The position numbers and the translations under genes were made by a program. Below, one piece after another: positions 15,374-49,960 of a stretch of DNA of 64,000 nucleotides. The stretch is from Escherichia coli (lineage in GTDB: Bacteria > Pseudomonadota > Gammaproteobacteria > Enterobacterales > Enterobacteriaceae), in the NCBI RefSeq assembly GCF_016903815.1, contig NZ_CP069973.1; one strand, 5' to 3'. The notes beneath the pieces are model-generated. The model was not told where the DNA came from, did not search any database, and saw nothing but the letters and a program-made list of their open reading frames with translations. The stretch's first letter is position 1; every line of letters begins with the position of its first letter.

Positions 15374-17350
15374 ATGCAGCTTAATCATATCGTTAAAAGT
15401 CTGCTAATAACGGGATTATTCACCACCAGTTCTTTACCTCTCCTCGCGGCGGAAGCTCCTAAAGACGCCACCGCAGCCACGCAACAAGCAAACAATTTAC
15501 TCTACAACCAGTTGCCGTTTGCCGATAACACTGACTTTACTGATGCCCATAAAGGTTTTATTGCCCCTATCCCTCAAGACGTGATTAAGGGCGAACAAGG
15601 GAATGTTATCTGGGATCCACAACATTACGCTTTTATCAAAGAAGGCGATAAAGCCCCTGATACGGTGAATCCGAGTTTATGGCGTCAGGCGCAACTGATA
15701 AATATCAGCGGGTTATTCGAAGTAACTGAAGGTGTCTATCAGATTCGCAATCTCGATCTATCAAATATGACCATCATTGAAGGCAAAGAGGGTATTACCG
15801 TCGTTGATCCCCTTGTTTCAGCAGAAACAGCCAAAGTGGGTATGGATCTCTATTACAAAAATCGCGGCAAAAAACCGGTAGTGGCGGTTATCTATACACA
15901 CAGTCATGTCGATCACTACGGTGGTGTTCGTGGCGTAATTGATGAAGCTGACGTTAAATCAGGCAAAGTTAAAATCTATGCGCCAGCCGGATTTTTGGAG
16001 GAAGCCGTTTCCGAAAACATCATGGCTGGCAATGTTATGAGCCGACGAGCCAGTTATATGTATGGCAACTTATTGAAACCTGATGTTAAAGGCCAGGTGG
16101 GGGCTGGACTGGGAACGACTACTTCAGCAGGAACAGTCACGTTGATTGCTCCTACTAACTACATCACCAAAACCGGACAAATAGAAACTATTGACGGGTT
16201 GACTTATGATTTCCTGATGGCGCCAGGTTCTGAAGCGCCTTCTGAAATGCTGTGGTTTATTGAAGAAAAGAAACTGATCGAAACCGCTGAAGATGTCACG
16301 CACACCCTTCATAACACCTATTCGCTGCGTGGGGCTAAAATTCGCCAACCGCTGCCGTGGTCAAAATATATTAATGAAGCTCTCAATTTGTGGGGTGATA
16401 AAGCCGAGATTATTCTCGCTCAACATCACTGGCCAACCTGGGGCAACGATAACGTGGTCAAACTGCTTAAAAGCCAGCGTGATTTGTATCGTTACATCAA
16501 TGATCAAACTCTGCGCATGGCTAATCAAGGGATGACCCGTGATGAAATTGCCGCAAACTTTAAACTGCCCTCTTCACTGGCTAACACCTGGGCGAATCGC
16601 GGCTATTACGGTTCGGTAAGTCATGACGTGAAAGCAACTTACGTGCTTTATCTCGGCTGGTTTGATGGTAACCCCGCGACGCTTGATGAACTGCCGCCAG
16701 AAGAAGGCGCAAAAAAATTCGTCGAGTATATGGGCGGTGCTGATGCCATTTTACAGAAAGCCACACAGGATTATGACCAGGGTAATTTCCGCTGGGTTGC
16801 CCAAGTTGTTAGTAAGGTGGTGTTTGCCGATCCAAACAACCAGGCAGCGAGAGATCTGGAAGCTGATGCGCTTGAGCAGTTAGGCTATCAGGCTGAATCT
16901 GGGCCGTGGCGTAATTTCTATCTCACTGGTGCACAGGAATTGCGTAATGGCGTACAAAAATTACCAACACCAAATACTGCCAGCCCAGACACCGTGCGTG
17001 CGATGACGCCGGAGATGTTCTTTGATTATCTTGCCGTCCATATTAATGGTGAGAAAGCGGCAGATGCCAAAACCGTGTTGAATTTCGATTTTGGTGAAGA
17101 TGGCGGCACCTATAAAGTGGAGCTTGAAAATGGTGTTCTCAATCATACCGCTGGTGTAGAGGCTTCGGATGCTGATGCCACTATCACTCTGTCTCGTGAT
17201 GTATTGAACAAAATTGTACTGAAAGAAGAGACGCTGAAAGAAGCCACGGCCAAAGGAGATGTCAAAATTACTGGCAATGAGGAAAAACTCAACGAGCTGT
17301 TAGGTTATATGGATAATTTTGAATTTTGGTTCAATATAGTGACACCATAA
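15374..17350 (+). CDS. Secreted alkyl/aryl-sulfatase, metallo-beta-lactamase fold (SdsA1/YjcS family)
   Basis: 658 aa; signal peptide; THSHVDHYGG zinc motif; GGAGA RBS; not present at this position in K-12 as I recall it. Confidence 0.8.
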   Translation: MQLNHIVKSLLITGLFTTSSLPLLAAEAPKDATAATQQANNLLYNQLPFADNTDFTDAHKGFIAPIPQDVIKGEQGNVIWDPQHYAFIKEGDKAPDTVNPSLWRQAQLINISGLFEVTEGVYQIRNLDLSNMTIIEGKEGITVVDPLVSAETAKVGMDLYYKNRGKKPVVAVIYTHSHVDHYGGVRGVIDEADVKSGKVKIYAPAGFLEEAVSENIMAGNVMSRRASYMYGNLLKPDVKGQVGAGLGTTTSAGTVTLIAPTNYITKTGQIETIDGLTYDFLMAPGSEAPSEMLWFIEEKKLIETAEDVTHTLHNTYSLRGAKIRQPLPWSKYINEALNLWGDKAEIILAQHHWPTWGNDNVVKLLKSQRDLYRYINDQTLRMANQGMTRDEIAANFKLPSSLANTWANRGYYGSVSHDVKATYVLYLGWFDGNPATLDELPPEEGAKKFVEYMGGADAILQKATQDYDQGNFRWVAQVVSKVVFADPNNQAARDLEADALEQLGYQAESGPWRNFYLTGAQELRNGVQKLPTPNTASPDTVRAMTPEMFFDYLAVHINGEKAADAKTVLNFDFGEDGGTYKVELENGVLNHTAGVEASDADATITLSRDVLNKIVLKEETLKEATAKGDVKITGNEEKLNELLGYMDNFEFWFNIVTP

Positions 17351-17396: not shown

Positions 17397-18494
17397 ATGG
17401 CTGAACGAAGAAAAACTCATCACTCATGGAAAACCCGCCGCGATATGGTTATTCGCGGCATGACGATTAGTTTGCCATGGTTTGCTTTTATCAATGTCAG
17501 TTTTGCATTGATAATTTTGCTGCGCCGTGTTCTGTTTAATGACCTTACTCCACCCTGGTTAAATGAAAAAAGCCTTATACATTCTATTGATATATCTGCA
17601 ACGGGTATTCTGCTGATTTGCAGTGGTTTACTACTCATCCCTCGGCAAAAAACATTACCTATCCAGGTGCTATTAGTTGCCCTGAGCCTGCTATGGTCAT
17701 GGTGTAGTTATCACTTTATTGCGTACTGGACGCTGCAGTTTGCTTATCCACTATGTGTATTATTAATGCTTAGTGGCGTTGTCGCACTTTATTTCCATAC
17801 CCCATCATTGCTCGCATTTGTCATTCCCTTATGGTTCACCACTCCAATAGCGAGTCTTATGCTTAATCAACAGATCAATATTCATTTTGCTGTTGTATGG
17901 TGTATTTTTTCACTGGCGCTATATGGTGGGCGACTCATTTTGTTACGTTGGTTTGAAGAAGCATGGATACAAAACAGTTATAACAACCAGTTAATTAATC
18001 GCCTTGATGCATTAGCACATCGTGATCCTTTAACTGGGATAGCAAACCGACGTGCAATGAACAGTATCTTACACGACGCGATGGATAACGGCGGGTCATT
18101 TGCTCTTATTATGCTGGATGTCGATTTTTTTAAACGTTACAACGACACTTACGGGCATCCTGCTGGGGATCGTTGTCTAATACAAGTTGCCGACGCTCTA
18201 CAGCGTTCAACTCGCCAGTCGGAGGATGTTGTTGTCCGTTATGGTGGCGAAGAGTTTGCCATCATACTTTTTAATGCAACATTGCCGGAAGCAGAGACGG
18301 TAGCAGCCAGAGTGAAGCAAGAACTTAAACTGGCAGCTATCCCACATCAGGCATCTGCTGTTAATGCATTTGTTACGGTTAGTCAGGGGATTACCTGTTC
18401 TGCTCCCGCAAAAACGGCTGAACAAATTATTTCAGATGCCGACGCTGCGTTATACCGGGCGAAAGAAAGTGGGCGAAATCGATGGGCTTTATAA
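17397..18494 (+). CDS. Membrane-anchored diguanylate cyclase (multi-TM N-terminal domain + GGDEF)
   Basis: 365-aa ORF; hydrophobic N-terminal ~200 aa; RYGGEEF active-site motif; start codon uncertain (no clear RBS; internal Met candidates at 17445 and 17460); AT-rich. Confidence 0.8.
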   Translation: MAERRKTHHSWKTRRDMVIRGMTISLPWFAFINVSFALIILLRRVLFNDLTPPWLNEKSLIHSIDISATGILLICSGLLLIPRQKTLPIQVLLVALSLLWSWCSYHFIAYWTLQFAYPLCVLLMLSGVVALYFHTPSLLAFVIPLWFTTPIASLMLNQQINIHFAVVWCIFSLALYGGRLILLRWFEEAWIQNSYNNQLINRLDALAHRDPLTGIANRRAMNSILHDAMDNGGSFALIMLDVDFFKRYNDTYGHPAGDRCLIQVADALQRSTRQSEDVVVRYGGEEFAIILFNATLPEAETVAARVKQELKLAAIPHQASAVNAFVTVSQGITCSAPAKTAEQIISDADAALYRAKESGRNRWAL

Positions 18495-18567: not shown

Positions 18568-19119
18568 CTATCTTCTTAGCGATGTCTTTCTGGTATCACA
18601 TTGGATCGGTGCAATTATTTTTCCTTTAATACCCATTATGTTAAGAAATTCAGAAACAGCTGTAATCTCATTGTTTTTTTCATTCGTCTTGATCTTCCAA
18701 GGAATCTGACTGTGCATTATTGAGAACACACTAATAACGTGAATCGCTCCCTTGCGACGACTCTTGTCATAAGAGTACCGGAGCGTTTTTCCATCAATTG
18801 CAATGACGTCTTTATCATCTGAAGAATGGCAGTCAAGCATCCAGTTAATAAAGCACTCATGAAATTTTTCAGGACTGATACAGGATACAACTCTGGCAAT
18901 GGTATCGTGAACAGGAATACCATTATCAAAATCACCATATTGCTTCAAAAAATCGAGATGTGTTTCCCCAAAATCCTCTATATCTTCCCAGCCTTCTGCA
19001 CCCGAAATAACGGCACAAATAGTCAACAGTAGAATATCCGATAATTTATGCTCCACTTTCCAGGCTTGTCTGTAATCGGGGATAATAGAAATATGTTCCA
19101 TCAATTTTTTAAGTTCCAT
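18568..19119 (-). mobile_element. H-repeat-associated (ISAs1-family) transposase, N-terminal fragment only
   Basis: 183 aa, [50 protein letters not shown]... recognised as H-rpt/YdcC-like; full-length proteins are about twice this size. Confidence 0.75.
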
Positions 19120-19254
19120 TTTGTTCTCCTTAATTATGTAAAGAGTATTTGATCATGTATAAGCAATAAAAAACAGCTTTAGGTAATGAGGAATATCTCA
19201 ATTTTTAAACATAAAATGCGAATTATTTAGTACAAAAAAGCAGCGTTACGTGAT

Positions 19255-19390
19255 CTTTCCCTGCCCTATCGGGTCTGTGTGATATATCGTCCCTGTCCCG
19301 GATTGTAGTACCGGTGCCAGTTGTAGTGCAGTTCGGATTCGTCGTCATACTGCTAGCCCGGATGGCGGAGCAGTTGCTCTAGTCACTCAG
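19255..19390 (-). pseudogene. Vestigial rhs core 3'-end fragment (nonsense + frameshift)
   Basis: Minus-strand translation [34 protein letters not shown] aligns with the main Rhs ...[35 protein letters not shown]; clear nucleotide similarity to 20331..20460. Confidence 0.6.
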
Positions 19391-19424: not shown

Positions 19425-19823
19425 TCAATATCCTAACGCTGGTCTTTTGCCTGTATTAACTGATTTAGCTGGTTTGCTACATATTAATGCCTTCAGATTT
19501 TCCCTTTCCTTGTCTGTGATACTGTCGCAAACCCTACTAGCCCATTCTACTTCACTCTTCTCCAGGCATTCAATTTTCTTATTGCTCATTGTTCTAATGT
19601 TTGGTGTTGCATCTCCATTTAATAACATCCATGTTTCATTTTTCTTCATAAAACATCTTCCATTATGTTCAAAGATATTAGGTGTGAATATATTATCAGA
19701 ATCCCATGTTACGACTTGCTCGAGGGCTATATTATCTTGATAGTCCATGCCAGAATTATAATAATCACAAGATATAATTATCATGGAAATAATTATCACT
19801 AATATCTTCCCAAGCATTTCCAT
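19425..19823 (-). CDS. Putative Rhs-toxin immunity lipoprotein
   Basis: 132 aa, immediately downstream of and abutting the rhs stop; lipobox IIS-C with Asp at +2; AT-rich; assignment is by position. Confidence 0.55.
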   Translation of the reverse strand: MEMLGKILVIIISMIIISCDYYNSGMDYQDNIALEQVVTWDSDNIFTPNIFEHNGRCFMKKNETWMLLNGDATPNIRTMSNKKIECLEKSEVEWASRVCDSITDKERENLKALICSKPAKSVNTGKRPALGY

Positions 19824-22800
19824 TTACTTTACCTCTTGAAATTTAAATGGGAATCCAGTGAAAGGACCTTTAGGCATAATATATCTTTGATATCCATAAA
19901 ACTCACCGAGCACTTGTAGGCTTATAGGCGCATTTGTATTCATAGAGGGGTTGTTAAACCCGCACGCCTCAAAAATCATGTTCGTTCGGCTAAAACAATT
20001 ATTTGCAACAGGAAGAGGCCCGAGGTTAATAGTTTTTAGTTTTTTATTAAGGTCTATTGCCTTATTCATCATACATTGTTCTTCTTCATCTGTTGTATCT
20101 ATTATCCAAATCCAGGTATCTCTGCGGGGTTGCATCTTTTTAAAATAATCAGAGACAGAGGCGCCCATCTCATCCCCAGTTCCCGAACTCATTAATCCAT
20201 ATCGATTTGCCGCCGCAGCATGCCCAAAAGGATTATCAGGAACGGGGCCATTACCTATTATCATAGTACTAAGGCCTAATGGATCAACGTGTTGCACTGG
20301 ATTCAGCGGATATTGGTACAGATTCCATCCCCCATCCCCCCCTATCGGGTCCTGGATGATATACCGCCCCTGCAACGGATCGTAGTACCGGTGACGGTTA
20401 TAATACAGCCCCGACTCCTCATCGTGTTGCTGCCCTGGCAGACGGTACGGCTGGTGCAGGTGATGCGGGTTTTCCTCATTCAGCAGGTTTCCCCACTCAT
20501 CATACTCCCCGCTCCACGCCGTATTGCCGTCTTCGCTGATGAGCGCCAGCGGCAGGCCCCGGTGGTCGCAGTGGTAAAGATGAACTTTTCGCGCCGGTGT
20601 GTATTCCGGCTCCACCTGTCTGGCCAGTTGCTCTACCGTCAGCCCGCACTGCGCAAGCCACGCCCGGCTTTCACTGCTCACGCGGTCTGCCCGGATTTCT
20701 TCCTCCAGTCTGTCCAGCAGCCGTACCAGTTCAGCCGGGAACACCACGCCGTGCCCGTCCTCGCTCCCTTCCTGCTGCAGCTTCTCCGCCAGGCTGTGGC
20801 GCTGCGTTTTCTCCCGCTCGCCGTTGTCTGTTTCGATGCGGATGAGTGGTGTGAAGCTTCCCGGCTCGTATACCGTCTGGATCCGGCTCTGTTGTGTCTG
20901 TATCGTCGTCAGCCTGTCACCGTCCCAGCCGTACCACGTTACCTCCGGTTTACGCGACAGCGACATCCACCCCGTCAGGTCACGTACCCGCCGCCACACC
21001 CGTTTACCCGTCCGGCGGCCCAGCGGGTCGTAGAGGTAGCGGCTCTCCACCTGCGGCTCGCCATGCTGTATCCGCGTGTAGAACTCTAGGCGGTGCTGGC
21101 TGTCGTAGTGGTAGTGGTGGGTCCGCTCGTCGTCCGTCCGTATCACACCCGCCGGGATGCGGTCCGTCTTCTCCGTCAGCCTGCCGTATTCATCGTGGCG
21201 GTAGACATAGTGCGCATCCTCCGCGATGCGGTTATCCAGCCACACTGTGAGTGTACTGTCCGGGTGCAGCTCCGGGTCCGGCAGCCGGTTGCCCGCCGGG
21301 TCCGTGGCATACGGGATGCGGATGTCCAGGTCCGGTGCGAGGGTGCGCACACTCGCCAGCCTGCCCGTGGCGCTGTAGCCGTATTCCCGCGTCTGTCGCG
21401 GGCCGCTGATGCGCACCAGGTCGCCGTTGTCATTCCACCCGTAGTCACGGTCATACACCAGGCTGTTCAGGTGCTGGCTCTGTAACTGGCCTGCGGGGGT
21501 GTATGTGCTGGTCAGTTCGTATGCGGCATTACTGCCTGCCATGCTGCCGAAGCTGCGCACCGTCTCCCGGTGCAGCCTGTCCCGCGTATACTCGACCCGC
21601 GGCGTCCCGCCCAGCTTCATGCCCGCCAGATAGCCGCTACCATAGGTCAGCCACTCCACCGGCGGCAGGCTGTCCGGCGTGACGCGGTTTGCCAGCCCCT
21701 GCTCGTTGTATGCGTGTTTCGTCTCATGCTGCCACAGCAGTTCCCCCGTCTCCGGGTTCTCCACCGTCTGGCGTTCGCCGGTCAGGCGGCCTTTATCGTC
21801 ATAGCCATAGTGGACGGCAACACGGTGGCCTTCACTGGTATGGCTGAGGGTGGTTAACCACCCGTGCTCATCATACTGCCACTGCTCTGCCGGGTCGCCG
21901 TTCACCGTCCGGTGCGTGATGCGGTCTGCTTCATCGTAGTACCACTGCGTGACCTGCCCCTCATCCTCGCTGCGGATGAGCTGCCCTGTGGCGCTGTACC
22001 GGTAACGCTGTGTCCTGCCATCAAAGCCGCGCTGCTCCGTCAGGCGGTCCAGCACATCGTAGGTAAATTCACTCCGGCTGCCGTTCTCGTTGGTCAGCGT
22101 GGTGACACGTCCTGCCGCGTCATACTCCATACTGCGCGTCAGCCCGCCCTGCGTGGTGCTGACCGCTTTTCCCCACGCATCGTACTGTGTCTCGCTCCGG
22201 TTGCCGTCCGGGGTGATAACGGCAGTCAGGTCGCCTGCGGCGTTGTACTCATACTGCGTTTCACGGCCCTGTGCGTCTTTCACCGAGGTTAACCGGCCAC
22301 GGTTGTCATAGCGGCGGTAACGGCTGATACCTTCCTCGCGGTGGACCGCCGTCATCTGACCAAAGCGGTCGTATTCATAGCGGGTCTGGTAGCCCGAGCA
22401 GTCGGTGAACGCCAGCAACTGCCCGTAGCGGCTCCAGGTCATCTGCCGGGTGCTGCCCGTCGCATCCGTTGTCGTCGCCGGTAACTCACTGTACGCGTCA
22501 TCGTAGCGGTAGCGTACTGTCTCCCCGCTGCGCGATGTCTCCGTTACCAGCCTGCCCGGTTCATCATATGCCCGGCGGCTCTCCAGCCCGTCCGGGGACA
22601 CCACTGCCGTCACCTGGTTCCCGTCGTTATAGTAAAATTTCGTCTCCCGCCCGTCCGGTGTGGTGATGTCCGTGATATCGCCTGACACCACATTCAGACC
22701 GTACTCTGTCCGCCGTCCCGCCGCGTCCGTCTGCGCCGTAAGCCTTCCTGCCGCGTCATACCCACTGTGCGTGGCGCTGCCGTCCGCCAGTTCTTTTTTC

Positions 22801-24029
22801 ACCACCCGCCTCAGCCCGGCCCCGCCTTCTGTATGCAGCACCTCACGCCGGTTCAGGCTGTCCGTGACGGTGATGCGGTCCTGCTCATACTGGTAGCGGT
22901 AACTCAGGCCTGCCGGGTTCAGCTGCTCCACCACCCGCCCCGCATCGTCGTAGCGGTAGCGCATCTCCGGCCTTCCCGCGTAACGGTGCGCCACCATCCG
23001 GCCCGGGTGCTGCGCGTCATACGTGAAAGCGCGCACCTGCGTATTGCTGCGGTCATATACCGCCAGCAGTTCACCGGCTTCCGTATACGTGTACCGCACC
23101 AGTGGCGCACCGGGCAGGCTCTCCGGGTATGCCGGGTCGTGCATCAGCCACACCGCCGAAAGACGGATGCCCCTGTCGGGGCCGTATTCGGTACCGGGCA
23201 GTGTGTCGGGGAACGCTGAGGCTGAAAGAGGGCGGGGGGTGTCAGGGGAAAATAAGGAAGCGGTGTGCTGTTTACGGGCCTCTTCCGCCCGCTGCGCCTG
23301 CGTGGTCAGCACCAGACGGAACTCCCGCCCGGCACCGTCCGTCACGCCGGTGATTTCCCCGGCCAGGTCACCGGCGGCCTCACGCCGGTACGTCAGCCCG
23401 GTAAGCACCCGGTACGGCGGCAGCGGCGCTGGCAGTACGTCCTCAGTGCCCGGCACCCGCTCTGACCACCCCAGTATCCACCACGGTCCCTGTGCGCTGT
23501 TGGTCGCCAGGTAAAGATGCGGGCTTAACCGGATATCCGGCGGCAGCGACGCCCACAGCCGTGCCAGCGTGTGGCCGTCCGGCTGCGCTGCCTTACCACC
23601 GCGAACCAGCCACATTGACTCGCTGCGGCTGTACACCGCCCCCCCCGGCAGCAGCGGCTCAAAGTGAATGCTCCGTCCGCCGTTGTCGTTGAGTACCAGT
23701 GCATCATCGCGTATCTGTAAGCGGATATCAGAAGGCGCTTTCCAGCCGGGGCCAAAAATTCCCACCGGCGCAGGCGTCTTCGTCCGGTAGCTGCTGTAGG
23801 TGCGGGAGAGAATGAACGGCAGCGGGCCGGGCAGCGCAAGGTCCGTCTCGCCGGGCAGCACCTTCGCCCCCAGCAGCGGATTTACCGGGTTGCCCGAAGT
23901 CATCCTGCCCGGACACACCGAGCACGCCACGCCGGTGGGCGCGCCAATTCTTACACCTGCCGAACCCTGGACAATGGGACCGCCATACTGAGTCATATCT
24001 CCCTGACGCGCCGCTGGTTTTCCGCTCAT
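19824..24029 (-). CDS. rhsE: Rhs-family polymorphic toxin with N-terminal PAAR-like domain, YD-repeat core and variable C-terminal toxin domain
   Basis: 1401 aa; N-terminus [11 protein letters not shown]; many YD repeats; core ends at ...[27 protein letters not shown], followed by a 148-aa AT-rich tail (19827..20270); gene symbol by synteny only. Confidence 0.9.
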
Positions 24030-24095: not shown

Positions 24096-26204
24096 TCAGT
24101 ACTCTCTCATATCCGGCGTATCCTGCTTTTCATCAGGGGTCTTCGGTGGGGATTTCGAGGCTGCACAGTTCCAGTTAATCAACAGTGAGTCACCATTAAC
24201 CTGCTCCTTACCCTGCAAATGAATTTTTGTGCCGTTGAGAAAAATTTGTCCGTCCTTAGTCAGCACCAGCCTTGCCTTACCACAGCAGAGTTCCAGATGC
24301 TCACCGGCGGAGTAAATCGCGGTCTGCCCGGTATCATCCTTTTTCGTTTTACCAACGGTGAAGGTAACGTTATTTCCGACTTTGACGTCATAACCCAGCC
24401 CGACCATCAACGATTTATGCAAACCGATCTGCGAGGACTGCATCAGGGCCACCGAAGTGTTCATAATGCCACCTACCGTCGTCTGATACGCCACGCCCAC
24501 AGTCAGCGCACGAACAAGTCCAATCGTTTCCACCTGAACAGAGCCCACTTTAATGATCTGGTTACTGCCCACCGTCTCTATCTGGTTAACGCCCACCGTC
24601 TGTATCTGATTGTTGGTAACCGCAATCATCTGATTGTTGCCAATGGTCTCAGCATGGTTGTTTATCACATCCGTGGTGCGGTTATTCAGCACCTCGGTGT
24701 TCATGTTCTTCTGCGCGTGGATGTAGACCTGTTCTTTCCCTGTCGCATCGTCAAACTTCAGTTCATTAAACCCGCTGCCCTTATAGGTTTTCGAACGAAT
24801 GGTCATCTGCGTCTTTGTTCCCGGCAGGCTGCCGGGGGTGCGGTTTTCCTGGTGGTAGGTACGCCCCATAATAATCGGCTGGTCCGGATCGCCGTTGAGG
24901 AAGTCCACAATGACTTCCTGACCCACACGCGGTATCGCCAGGTTGCCAAAGCCGGTGCCTGCCCACGCCTGTGCCACACGGATCCAGCATGAACTGTCCT
25001 GGTTTGACGGGTTATAGCGGTCCCAGTTAAATTTCACCCGCACGCGGCCATGTTCATCACAGAAGATTTCTTCTCCTGCCGGTCCCGTCACGACGGCGCT
25101 CTGCGGGCCGTCCACCAGCGGTTTCAGCAACGGCTGTGGCCGCCATGTTCTGTCTGCCGGTATTACCGCAAAGTGGTTATTCAGCGTGGTACCTGAACCC
25201 CTGCGTCCCGGCACCGCCTGCGGCTGCTCGCCGTGCAGTTCACTTGCCACCACCTGCCATTCCCGGTTCAGGTTCGCCTGCGGATGCCCCGTCAGCGCAA
25301 TTCGCCGTCCCGGCCATATCTCCGGCGAACGGCTTGTTCCGCGCGCCACTTCTGCGTTGTTTCGCCAGCCATCCATCTGCCAGCAGGCAAAGTTCTGCCC
25401 GTGGGCACCCTTGAAACGTCCGGGGTAGTCATACACTTCATACTGTGTGCGCTGGTAATCCTGGTGCTGGCCTTCCTGATCAAAACGCCCTGCCCAGCCG
25501 GGTCGTTTAAAGGTGTAGTCTTTGGTCACCACGGAAGATGGGCGGATTTGTGCGCTGTAGAGGAACTGGCTGATGCATAGGGTGCTCACCTCGGTACGGG
25601 TGTTCGGATTCCAGGGGATCTCAAAGGACTCCGGCAGATAACGCACGGTGTCGCACAGGACCAGGCTCTGGTCGGTACTTTTTTGCGCGTGCTCCTCATA
25701 AAAGAAGATGCCTTCCTCCGCCGCCATCCGGCACAGGAAATCGTAATCGGTTTCGCCGTACTGGACACAAAACTCACGGGAAGGATGCGGCTCGCTGAAC
25801 AGCGGACTCCACTCGGTCACCCCGTTTTCTTTCAGGATCGTCGCGAGTATGCTTTCGATGTCCTCATTCTGGAAGATACGGAAGTTCTGGCGCAGCCCTG
25901 TGCGCCACAGTGGTGGGCACACCTTCATGCTGTACAGCATCTGGTTTTTGTCGTTCTCCCCCAGTTCAAACCAGGTCACCACACCTTTCACCCGGCGCTG
26001 TACGTCATCGCCCTGCCATACCGTCAGGTAGGCCATTTTGTCCAGCACCTGCGCAAATTCAAGGGAGAGAAACTGCTGGCTGACCAGAGAGAGATCGAGG
26101 GAAAAGAGCGAAGAGAATGACTGGTTCAGATGAAAGGAGACCACCGCAAACGCGTCCGGTGGCAGGCCGTCCACTTCCAGCGTGAAACGTAATCCGGCTG
26201 ACAT
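24096..26204 (-). CDS. vgrG: Type VI secretion spike protein VgrG
   Basis: 702 aa from MSAGLRFTLEVDGLPPDAFAVVSF (internal Met of the track ORF, GGAGG RBS 7 nt upstream); 66 nt upstream of rhs. Confidence 0.88.
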   Translation of the reverse strand: MSAGLRFTLEVDGLPPDAFAVVSFHLNQSFSSLFSLDLSLVSQQFLSLEFAQVLDKMAYLTVWQGDDVQRRVKGVVTWFELGENDKNQMLYSMKVCPPLWRTGLRQNFRIFQNEDIESILATILKENGVTEWSPLFSEPHPSREFCVQYGETDYDFLCRMAAEEGIFFYEEHAQKSTDQSLVLCDTVRYLPESFEIPWNPNTRTEVSTLCISQFLYSAQIRPSSVVTKDYTFKRPGWAGRFDQEGQHQDYQRTQYEVYDYPGRFKGAHGQNFACWQMDGWRNNAEVARGTSRSPEIWPGRRIALTGHPQANLNREWQVVASELHGEQPQAVPGRRGSGTTLNNHFAVIPADRTWRPQPLLKPLVDGPQSAVVTGPAGEEIFCDEHGRVRVKFNWDRYNPSNQDSSCWIRVAQAWAGTGFGNLAIPRVGQEVIVDFLNGDPDQPIIMGRTYHQENRTPGSLPGTKTQMTIRSKTYKGSGFNELKFDDATGKEQVYIHAQKNMNTEVLNNRTTDVINNHAETIGNNQMIAVTNNQIQTVGVNQIETVGSNQIIKVGSVQVETIGLVRALTVGVAYQTTVGGIMNTSVALMQSSQIGLHKSLMVGLGYDVKVGNNVTFTVGKTKKDDTGQTAIYSAGEHLELCCGKARLVLTKDGQIFLNGTKIHLQGKEQVNGDSLLINWNCAASKSPPKTPDEKQDTPDMREY

Positions 26205-36603: not shown

Positions 36604-36777
36604 TTAAAACAGTGAAAACAACAGCGCCACCGGGAAACTCATCGGCCATGTTGCCCCCACCAGAAAGGCGCTTAAGAAACGGATGCGTTTCTTATCGTGA
36701 GAAAGAAACCAGGTGATAAGAAATGAGATTGCTGCCATAACCGCATAAAAAACAAGCATATGTTGATAGAGAGACAT
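36604..36777 (-). CDS. ortT: Orphan membrane toxin OrtT (YdcX)
   Basis: 57 aa from MSLYQHMLVFYAVMAAISFLITWFLSHDKKRIRFLSAF..., internal Met of the track ORF. Confidence 0.7.
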   Translation of the reverse strand: MSLYQHMLVFYAVMAAISFLITWFLSHDKKRIRFLSAFLVGATWPMSFPVALLFSLF

Positions 36778-44241: not shown

Positions 44242-44658
<417 letters not shown>

Positions 44659-44703
44659 AATTTCGACTGTCTCTCGCATGTCATTAACCTTTTTAATTGG
44701 CGA

Positions 44704-44880
44704 TTAACTCAAACCGAGTTGTTTCAGGATTGCTTTACGCAATGGTTCTTTAATCTCATCGCAGGGGTGACGCGGCATGACACTGCGCCTCCCACGAAAC
44801 CTGAGTTTCAAATGGTTGCTGCCATTCGCTACATCGACGCCCTGAGATTCGAGCCAACGTCTGAACTCGCTTTGTTTCAC
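44704..44880 (-). CDS. hicA: HicA mRNA-interferase toxin
   Basis: Hand translation (below the track size cutoff): V/MKQSEFRRWLESQGVDVANGSNHLKLRFRGRRSVMPRHPCDEIKEPLRKAILKQLGLS*; apparent GTG start. Confidence 0.75.
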   Translation of the reverse strand: MKQSEFRRWLESQGVDVANGSNHLKLRFRGRRSVMPRHPCDEIKEPLRKAILKQLGLS

Positions 44881-49299: not shown

Positions 49300-49960
49300 T
49301 ATAAGGCTCTCTTACCAGCCGCGCCCTAACAGGCGCACACGATCTGACATTTGCATCCAACTTCGTTACTTACGGCCCGTAAACGGGCTGCCCGGATAGG
49401 GAATCGATAACTGCTCTCCCATTTTATCCTCTTCAAGCTGGTGCTTTATGTAATCCTGTATCTTCGCCGTGTTCTTACCCACCGTATCGACGTAGTACCC
49501 TCTGCACCAGAACTCCCTGTTCCTGTATTTGAATTTCAAATCACCAAACTGCTCGTAAAGCATCAGACTGCTTTTCCCTTTCAGATATCCCATAAAGCCG
49601 GATACGCTCATTTTGGGCGGGATCTCCACAAGCATATGGATATGATCTGCACAGCATTCAGCTTCCAGAATCCGTACACTTTTCCACTCACACAGCTTTC
49701 TCAAAATACTGCCTATTGCTCTACGCTTCTCTCTGTAGAACACCTGTCTTCGGTATTTTGGCGCAAAAACTATGTGATATTTACAGTTCCATCGGGTGTG
49801 CGCTAAGCTCTTTTCGTTCCCCATTGGGACCCCCTTTTGATTTCTTGTTTGACACTTGCAGTTGCCAGACCGCAAGGTGTTTTAACAAATCAAAAGGGGT
49901 TTTAATAACTGGCTTAAAGCTGAAAGCTTTCCGGAACCCCCAGCCTAGCTGGGGGTTTTC
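49300..49960 (-). mobile_element. IS200-like insertion sequence (boundaries approximate)
   Basis: Contains the tnpA CDS; palindromes cccccagc-cta-gctggggg (~49935..49955) and ccccttttgatt...aatcaaaagggg (~49843..49905) resemble IS200 left-end structures. Confidence 0.55.
49366..49824 (-). CDS. tnpA: IS200/IS605-family Y1 (HuH) transposase TnpA
   Basis: 152 aa from MGNEKSLAHTRWNCKYHIVFAPKYRR...; HuH motif HIHMLVEIPP; catalytic Tyr region YIKHQL. Confidence 0.85.
   Translation of the reverse strand: MGNEKSLAHTRWNCKYHIVFAPKYRRQVFYREKRRAIGSILRKLCEWKSVRILEAECCADHIHMLVEIPPKMSVSGFMGYLKGKSSLMLYEQFGDLKFKYRNREFWCRGYYVDTVGKNTAKIQDYIKHQLEEDKMGEQLSIPYPGSPFTGRK

Follow-up and report, generated by a model that had tools for sequence, protein, structure and literature searches.

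The C-terminal tip of an Rhs protein of Escherichia coli (contig NZ_CP069973.1, assembly GCF_016903815.1) is very likely to be a circularly permuted NlpC/P60 (papain-like) Cys-His enzyme, as judged from its predicted structure. The tip forms the last 148 residues of a 1401-aa protein encoded in a stretch of 64,000 nucleotides (nt), here called the window. In the model that we favor with moderate confidence, and which draws on analogy with characterized enzymes, the tip would be delivered by a type VI secretion system (T6SS), would act as a membrane-lipid toxin on the periplasmic side and would be blocked by the lipoprotein encoded directly downstream.

Roughly a tenth of the complete E. coli genomes, including those of many human clinical isolates, contain the vgrG-rhs-immunity module, which now has a testable predicted function. 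Lipid-targeting permuted NlpC/P60 toxins were first biochemically characterized in 2026 with Tox-Act1; the tip described here belongs to an Rhs-borne, sequence-distinct branch that is closer to Lnb. If the model is correct, this is an Rhs cargo aimed at the periplasmic side, against the usual view that such cargos act in the cytoplasm. Pfam misses most of the domain family, which comprises more than 300 cluster representatives, and a dedicated hidden Markov model (HMM) would annotate many polymorphic toxins.

Fold and predicted active site of the tip

The tip, its key residues (tip numbering, with Rhs numbering in brackets) and its predicted partner are located as follows.

19827-20270, minus strand: toxin tip, 148 aa (148 codons), Rhs residues 1254-1401
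20220-20222, minus strand: His17 (Rhs H1270), predicted general base, from conservation and the modelled strand
19995-19997, minus strand: Cys92 (Rhs C1345), predicted nucleophile, from conservation and the modelled helix
20073-20075 and 19962-19964, minus strand: C66 (Rhs C1319) and C103 (Rhs C1356), a covarying pair
19425-19823, minus strand: predicted immunity lipoprotein, 132 aa, from the open reading frame (ORF) list and a reading of its signal peptide and lipobox

Two alignments were used for structure prediction. With a seven-sequence alignment, AlphaFold gave a mean predicted local distance difference test (pLDDT) score of 77; with a 35-sequence alignment (A2), AlphaFold2 gave a pLDDT of 91.8 and a predicted template modelling (pTM) score of 0.86. 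DSSP analysis of the better model shows that H17 opens a strand (residues 17-22) and that C92 opens a helix (residues 92-102). Papain-like active sites have this geometry, with the nucleophile at the N-terminus of a helix and the base on a strand. In a Foldseek search of AFDB50, the tip's own clade is retrieved first (E. coli, then Hafnia at 68% identity), followed by Rhs C-termini and small proteins annotated as "DUF4105" or "Lnb N-terminal periplasmic domain-containing" (E-values from 2e-12 to 1e-6, TMq 0.7-0.84). The top fold and profile matches are YiiX, TseH, DUF4105/Lnb_N and RID. The tip has features that define permuted NlpC/P60 proteins: the shared papain-like alpha+beta fold, a His that precedes the Cys and lies on a strand, and a Cys at the start of a helix.

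The same residues stand out in an alignment of the wider superfamily. A word-indexed search retrieved 19 close relatives, all of them Rhs tails (lowest identity 54%), and an exhaustive search of 1.84 billion cluster representatives with a profile of seven close relatives (A1) retrieved 333 proteins with E-values of 1e-3 or below (134 of these at 1e-10 or below). The domain is C-terminal in all 150 of the 333 matches that were listed, in host proteins ranging from approximately 150 to 2489 aa, and many relatives carry the Rhs DPxG junction just N-terminal to it. The A1 profile, which represents the close clade, found no relatives among the GTDB species representatives; a mid-distance alignment (A4) found six loci in species-representative genomes. 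The plasmid collection contained only two relatives, both distant and both on Ralstonia megaplasmids.

No variation is seen at N13, G25 and C92 in the 149 aligned domains, and H17, G16, G30 and R50 are each kept in 148. The superfamily consensus is ..IENGPTxGNPxGH(T/A)AIAxTGxGVYSFG(T/N)..LGSS..Y......RR.....I.TTPEQ.....[variable]..DNC(A/S)xR(T/S)N.AL.AAG, in which the motif around Cys92 is (D/N)NC(A/S/F)xR(T/S)N. His and Cys are separated by 75 residues in the tip and by 68-96 in all relatives scored but one. This order, with the Cys some 70-80 residues after the His, is what circular permutation of a papain-like enzyme would produce.

Sequence libraries place the tip near, but outside, a named family. 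The tip has no match in Pfam even at E-values up to 10, none in NCBIfam and none in PADLOC, and searches of the PDB with the sequence and with two profiles returned nothing meaningful (matches to exportin-T and 17-beta-HSD are at chance level, with E-values above 0.1). When the members of A2 were compared with Pfam, Lnb_N (PF13387, formerly DUF4105) was the sole recurrent family, matched by two of the 35 at E-values of 1e-3 or below (best 2e-6) and by six at 0.1 or below. The consensus of the 149-sequence profile likewise matches Lnb_N alone (E-value: 0.014), over the segment containing the Cys helix. Neither the tip nor its relatives match the Pfam family Peptidase_C92. Among the circularly permuted NlpC/P60 Cys-His enzymes, to which the tip is assigned with high confidence, its nearest branch is DUF4105/Lnb_N, although it has diverged too far to be recognized by that Pfam model.

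A preliminary description made from the sequence alone had concluded that the tip could not be assigned to a family, and had proposed a Pfam search and structure prediction as checks. The Pfam search bears this out insofar as no named sequence family applies. Structure prediction contradicts it: the pLDDT-92 model, its NlpC/P60-type neighbors and the profile matches place the tip in the permuted NlpC/P60 superfamily. The same description had seen no nuclease, deaminase or ADP-ribosyltransferase signature, and none was found in the libraries or in the fold. Such activities were considered for the tip and rejected, as the corresponding folds and motifs are absent; export of the immunity protein also speaks against a nucleic acid target in the cytoplasm.

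The downstream lipoprotein and the probable site of action

The product of the downstream gene begins with the signal peptide MEMLGKILVIIISMIIIS, followed by C19 (19767-19769) and the residues DYY. Its lipobox, IISC, fits the pattern [LVI][ASTVI][GAS]C as read from the sequence, and an Asp occupies position +2. In E. coli lipoproteins, Asp at +2 is the classical signal for retention in the inner membrane. The mature protein contains four further Cys residues. Homologues from Salmonella (L004) and from a metagenome (L003) retain the lipobox ([IV]SC|DYY), Asp+2 and all four Cys; the lipobox with Asp+2 is thus conserved in three of three clade members. UniProt entries call the protein "Lipoprotein". 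It belongs to no family in Pfam, NCBIfam or PADLOC, and its matches to NanM/YjhT in Pfam and NCBIfam are at chance level. This gene product is predicted from its sequence features to be an immunity protein retained in the inner membrane.

Proteins encoded in the same position beside distant relatives are also located in the envelope, in all seven of the seven cases examined. In six of these, the next gene encodes a 75-92-aa protein with two transmembrane (two-TM) segments (four cases), a signal-anchored protein (one case) or an ankyrin protein with a signal peptide (one case). The remaining case is an Rhs tip of the same superfamily on a Ralstonia megaplasmid, next to which a lipoprotein with the lipobox VSSC is encoded.

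The covarying Cys pair of the tip provides a further indication. C66 and C103 are both Cys in 17 of the 149 domains and are never found singly; the 17 include five members that are only 26-31% identical to the tip. This pattern suggests that the two residues form a disulfide, probably one specific to the clade, and hence that the domain acts in an oxidizing compartment. Together, the lipoprotein partner, the envelope-located partners of the relatives and the covarying Cys pair indicate the periplasmic face of the envelope, and not a cytoplasmic target, as the likely site of action.

Most Rhs tips act in the cytoplasm, and if this one did so too, on a protein or some other soluble target, its Cys-His center could be that of a protease, a deamidase or a RID-like lysine fatty-acyltransferase. 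The evidence makes this very unlikely. The partner protein appears to be exported, given that its lipobox signal peptide and four of its Cys are conserved, the downstream proteins of the seven distant relatives are envelope located, and the disulfide suggested by the Cys pair would not form in the cytoplasm.

The two-TM mini-proteins are encoded at 3465-3743 of L007, 3468-3731 of L008, 1116-1343 of L009 and 3457-3699 of L010 (Methylococcaceae, Cellvibrio and other Pseudomonadota metagenome-assembled genomes). They form a conserved 75-92-aa family with the motif YAYxYV...P(D/N)LxGYE(A/T)EW, and are probably the immunity proteins of those relatives. The lipoprotein at 3946-4311 of L013 (Ralstonia solanacearum PSI07 megaplasmid) and the signal-anchored protein at 2563-2907 of L005 (Pseudomonas alcaligenes) have mature parts that are alike by eye, with the shared pattern ...GKP(S/T)...P(C)...W...(K/N)G(R/N)V(V/I)(H/S)K.Y..SP. 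These two downstream proteins may represent a third immunity family of the toxin superfamily.

The rhs locus and its distribution

RefSeq annotation was taken from E. coli strain 7/2 (NZ_CP023820.1), from which the window, a piece of E. coli chromosome, differs by two bases over the approximately 56 kb compared. RefSeq names the rhs product "RHS element core protein" and the product of the downstream gene "hypothetical protein". The remaining features of the locus are as follows.

24096-26204, minus strand: vgrG, encoding the T6SS spike protein, directly 5' of rhs (RefSeq annotation of 7/2 and ORF list)
19824-24029, minus strand: Rhs ORF, 1401 aa, intact (ORF list)
20271-24029, minus strand: Rhs core, residues 1-1253, with DUF6531, YD/RHS repeats and Rhs-associated core (NCBIfam and Pfam)
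20271-20351, minus strand: DPIG-x18-DPLGL, residues 1227-1253 (read from the translation)
19832-19837, minus strand: Shine-Dalgarno sequence AAGAGG of the downstream gene, within the final rhs codons
19275-19382, minus strand: decayed remnant of an Rhs core end, with stop codons (RefSeq pseudogene and three-frame reading)
18569-19119, minus strand: truncated ISAs1 (H-repeat) transposase, which bounds the rhs element (RefSeq annotation and ORF)

The Rhs core is the encapsulating shell and T6SS carrier of the tip. NCBIfam RHS_core matches residues 1-1253 with 2683 bits (cutoff 2000) and Rhs_assc_core matches residues 1176-1253; at the N-terminus, Pfam identifies DUF6531 (E-value: 1.3e-18) and RHS_repeat, together with a weak PAAR_motif match (E-value: 0.14). 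The translation contains a perfect DPxGx18DPxG motif at the junction of core and tip. In Rhs and Tc proteins, this motif is the site of C-terminal aspartyl autoproteolysis, and it is predicted to release the tip. The rhs stop codon (TAA, 19824-19826) abuts the ATG of the downstream gene at 19823. The locus shows the features of an Rhs-type polymorphic toxin: a repeat shell, a DPxGx18DPxG end, a variable tip, linkage to vgrG and an adjoining predicted immunity gene.

These data agree with the preliminary description in placing a 148-aa tip at 19827-20270 after the motif that ends the core, as both RHS_core and Rhs_assc_core end at residue 1253. That description had also reported that the GC content falls exactly at this junction. 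The fall is real (0.639 in the core, 0.399 in the tip and 0.341 in the downstream ORF; 0.77 in the core versus 0.34 in the tip at third codon positions), but it is graded over approximately 200 nt (~20120-20400) and begins within the final ~100 nt of the core. Its view of the tip as a swapped-in polymorphic toxin is upheld by comparison with complete E. coli genomes: the tip and downstream gene are present at 80% coverage or more in 542 of 5426, and approximately 2900 further genomes match the core portion of the query alone, which indicates tip swapping. The identical Rhs protein is found on 160 contigs, and the toxin/immunity pair also occurs in Salmonella, Hafnia and Citrobacter.

In comparison with a Salmonella copy that is 84% identical, the E. 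coli tip has a dN/dS (ratio of nonsynonymous to synonymous substitution rates) of 0.155, with a dS of 0.48, and so is under purifying selection. Together with the genome and contig counts, this shows that the tip is no chance ORF. The selection estimate bears on the suggestion that the tip is decayed or inactive and has no present function. The predicted activity is derived from sequence and a model, and the locus is flanked by a decayed Rhs end and a broken ISAs1 element. With an intact 1401-aa ORF, both catalytic residues kept, this low dN/dS and the occurrence of the pair in 542 complete genomes and three other genera, decay of the tip is extremely unlikely.

The Rhs fragment and broken ISAs1 at 18569-19382 are leftovers of an older rhs 3' end whose place the present tip has taken, and this interval contains no intact orphan toxin/immunity pair. 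In Salmonella enterica GCA_007019185.2 (L004, 1035-3628), the tip and immunity gene occur as an orphan module consisting of a partial 213-aa Rhs end and the immunity gene. Next to it lies another Rhs fragment, of 714 aa, which has a separate 150-aa ORF downstream, so that alternative tips are arranged in an array. An Rhs protein with a TseH-like tip, included in S3B of PMC12994826, is also encoded in this assembly.

On the plus strand, between pptA and the ISAs1 fragment, lie genes for an alkyl/aryl-sulfatase (15374-17350) and a GGDEF diguanylate cyclase (ORF 17397-18494, RefSeq start 17445). These two genes, which we take to be missing from E. coli K-12 at this position, may belong to the same variable island. 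Other small toxin genes in the 7/2 annotation (ortT, 36604-36777; hicA/hicB, 44242-44880; hokB, 61057-61206) and an IS200C transposase gene (49366-49824) are ordinary E. coli features.

Proposed mechanism and comparison with known systems

The proposed model for the action of the tip is as follows. The Rhs shell would be fired into a neighboring cell on the VgrG spike, and autoproteolysis at DPxGx18DPxG would free the tip. At the periplasmic face of the envelope, the site suggested by the immunity protein and the covarying Cys pair, His17 on its beta-strand would activate Cys92 at the N-terminus of its helix. The Cys92 thiolate would then attack a fatty-acyl ester of a membrane phospholipid to form a thioester acyl-enzyme, by analogy with Lnb, Tox-Act1, TseH, YiiX-like enzymes and LRAT/PLAAT. 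This intermediate could be resolved by water, in which case the tip would be a phospholipase A that produces lysophospholipids and causes membrane failure; alternatively, the acyl chain could be passed on to a different acceptor. The producing cell would be protected by the translationally coupled, disulfide-rich small lipoprotein, which would be held at the inner membrane and would bind and block the toxin.

The closest functional precedent is Tox-Act1 (STox_15), a Salmonella effector of the T6SS encoded in Salmonella pathogenicity island 6 (SPI-6), which has a permuted NlpC/P60 core (PMC12994826, PLoS Biol 2026). Tox-Act1 is toxic only in the periplasm, requires H43 and C151, and cleaves phosphatidylglycerol and phosphatidylethanolamine to lysolipids; intoxicated cells lyse with the sacculus intact, and the two-TM protein Imm-Act1 neutralizes the toxin (PMC12994826). 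In the published tree, Tox-Act1 is sister to DUF4105/Lnb, and TseH also has phospholipase activity (PMC12994826). Many entries in the published table of the broad "Tox-Act1 clade" are fused to Rhs and match DUF4105, Peptidase_C97 or nothing in Pfam, and an E. coli protein combining Rhs and DUF4105 (QMP79959.1) is named as a Tox-Act1 homologue (PMC12994826). The superfamily of the tip shows the same Pfam pattern as this clade table.

Several observations weigh against the proposed model. Canonical NlpC/P60 enzymes cut peptidoglycan, so the fold alone does not fix the substrate. The tip is a relative and not a member of Lnb_N, as it lacks any Pfam match. No single residue is singled out as the third polar member of a catalytic triad, for which the candidates are S28 (146/149), T31 (T or N in 148/149) and D33 (clade-specific); in Lnb and TseH the third residue is at His+17 (PMC11573676). 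Rhs-fused toxins usually act in the cytoplasm (PMC12994826). His and Cys are 108 residues apart in Tox-Act1, compared to 75 in the tip, and Imm-Act1 is an 86-aa two-TM protein that is unrelated to the 132-aa lipoprotein encoded here.

Sequence comparison with Tox-Act1, the sole toxin of the group to have been characterized biochemically, adds to these points. The Tox-Act1 sequence (P0167, 279 aa) was recovered with a query of four primer-deduced peptides joined by X spacers, and its family consists of stand-alone and PAAR-fused proteins of Enterobacteriaceae. A 148-sequence HMM of the tip superfamily scores only 1-2 bits against Tox-Act1, and in the reverse direction a Tox-Act1 HMM reaches at best 9.9 bits against the 149 domains. 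Profile-profile comparison with hhalign of A2 and the Tox-Act1 family alignment (A3) gave an E-value of 0.16, and larger profiles gave a P-value of 0.023. Membership of the tip in the Tox-Act1 sequence family was therefore rejected, with none of five comparisons significant. The alignments do place His on His and NNC on NC, with confidence confined to the segment containing the NC motif. The two-TM proteins found beside distant relatives of the tip are built like Imm-Act1, and their homology to it is not significant.

The Cys-His center could also belong to a periplasmic cell wall hydrolase that attacks peptidoglycan at a peptide or amide bond, comparable to NlpC/P60 enzymes and Tae effectors, with the lipoprotein blocking it in the periplasm. 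This is unlikely, because the permuted group is lipid directed: lysis by Tox-Act1 leaves the sacculus intact and TseH showed phospholipase activity (PMC12994826). The nearest annotated relatives of the tip are Lnb-type acyltransferases, and the membrane-embedded two-TM immunity proteins of its relatives point to the membrane.

Those same relatives raise another prospect, in which the tip would not be a simple phospholipase but would act as an acyltransferase or as a deacylase on lipoproteins or on a different envelope acceptor, corrupting lipoprotein N-acylation or Lol sorting, and the immunity protein might be a decoy or competitive binder. Lnb_N is the sole Pfam family touched by the superfamily, the AFDB neighbors are annotated as DUF4105/Lnb_N and Lnb uses the same Cys; lipoproteins have been raised as possible targets (PMC12994826), and the immunity protein is itself a lipoprotein of the inner membrane type. 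Nevertheless, only hydrolysis was shown for Tox-Act1 and transfer has been shown for no toxin of the group, the tip lacks the five transmembrane helices of Lnb, and the two-TM, non-lipoprotein immunity proteins of relatives speak against a general decoy mechanism. Such an activity is, on balance, quite improbable. In a variant to which we give a similarly low probability, the tip would mimic Lnb as a secreted enzyme and use the target cell's phospholipids to mis-acylate, or to remove acyl chains from, lipoproteins of the envelope or another periplasmic acceptor at the inner membrane. Lipoprotein sorting would thereby be poisoned, and the immunity protein would serve as a decoy substrate or active-site plug. 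If true, this would be a T6SS toxin mechanism without characterized precedent.

A periplasmic attack on membrane lipids, as set out in the proposed model, can be compared with a number of known enzymes. LRAT, PLAAT (H-RAS-like suppressor) and the RID domain of MARTX toxins are eukaryotic or directed at eukaryotes and have no sequence similarity to the tip, and the structural match to PLAAT is much weaker. YiiX/YaeF-like enzymes (Peptidase_C92; PDB 2if6 and 3kw0) are housekeeping proteins without an immunity gene, unlike the tip. TseH (VCA0285; PDB 6v98), a T6SS effector of Vibrio cholerae, is 7% identical to the tip, is a stand-alone protein and has a different immunity protein; its Pfam family is DUF6695 (PMC12994826).

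Lnb, the lipoprotein N-acyltransferase of Bacteroides, requires C148 and moves acyl chains onto lipoproteins (PMC11573676). It is like the tip in its permuted Cys-His arrangement, its essential Cys and its orientation towards the periplasm, and Lnb-type proteins are the closest annotated AFDB neighbors of the tip. Lnb, however, has a housekeeping role and five transmembrane helices, whereas the tip is predicted to be secreted as a soluble toxin domain and is paired with a putative immunity gene.

Tox-Act1 and the tip have in common a T6SS-associated antibacterial function, which for the tip is predicted, a permuted core and a His that comes first, with the Cys later in an NNC-type helix motif. 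Imm-Act1, like the predicted immunity lipoprotein, is membrane associated. The two differ in size and context: Tox-Act1, with 279 aa, stands alone or is fused to PAAR and has a long Gly/Ser-rich tail, and the tip is a 148-aa domain fused to Rhs. The tip resembles Tox-Act1 in fold and catalytic layout and lies outside its sequence family. T6SS toxins with a permuted, lipid-directed NlpC/P60 core have already been described, and DUF4105-like Rhs fusions have been listed in silico; the E. coli tip adds to these a Pfam-invisible member with a different type of predicted immunity protein, a lipoprotein, in a sequence family apart from that of Tox-Act1.

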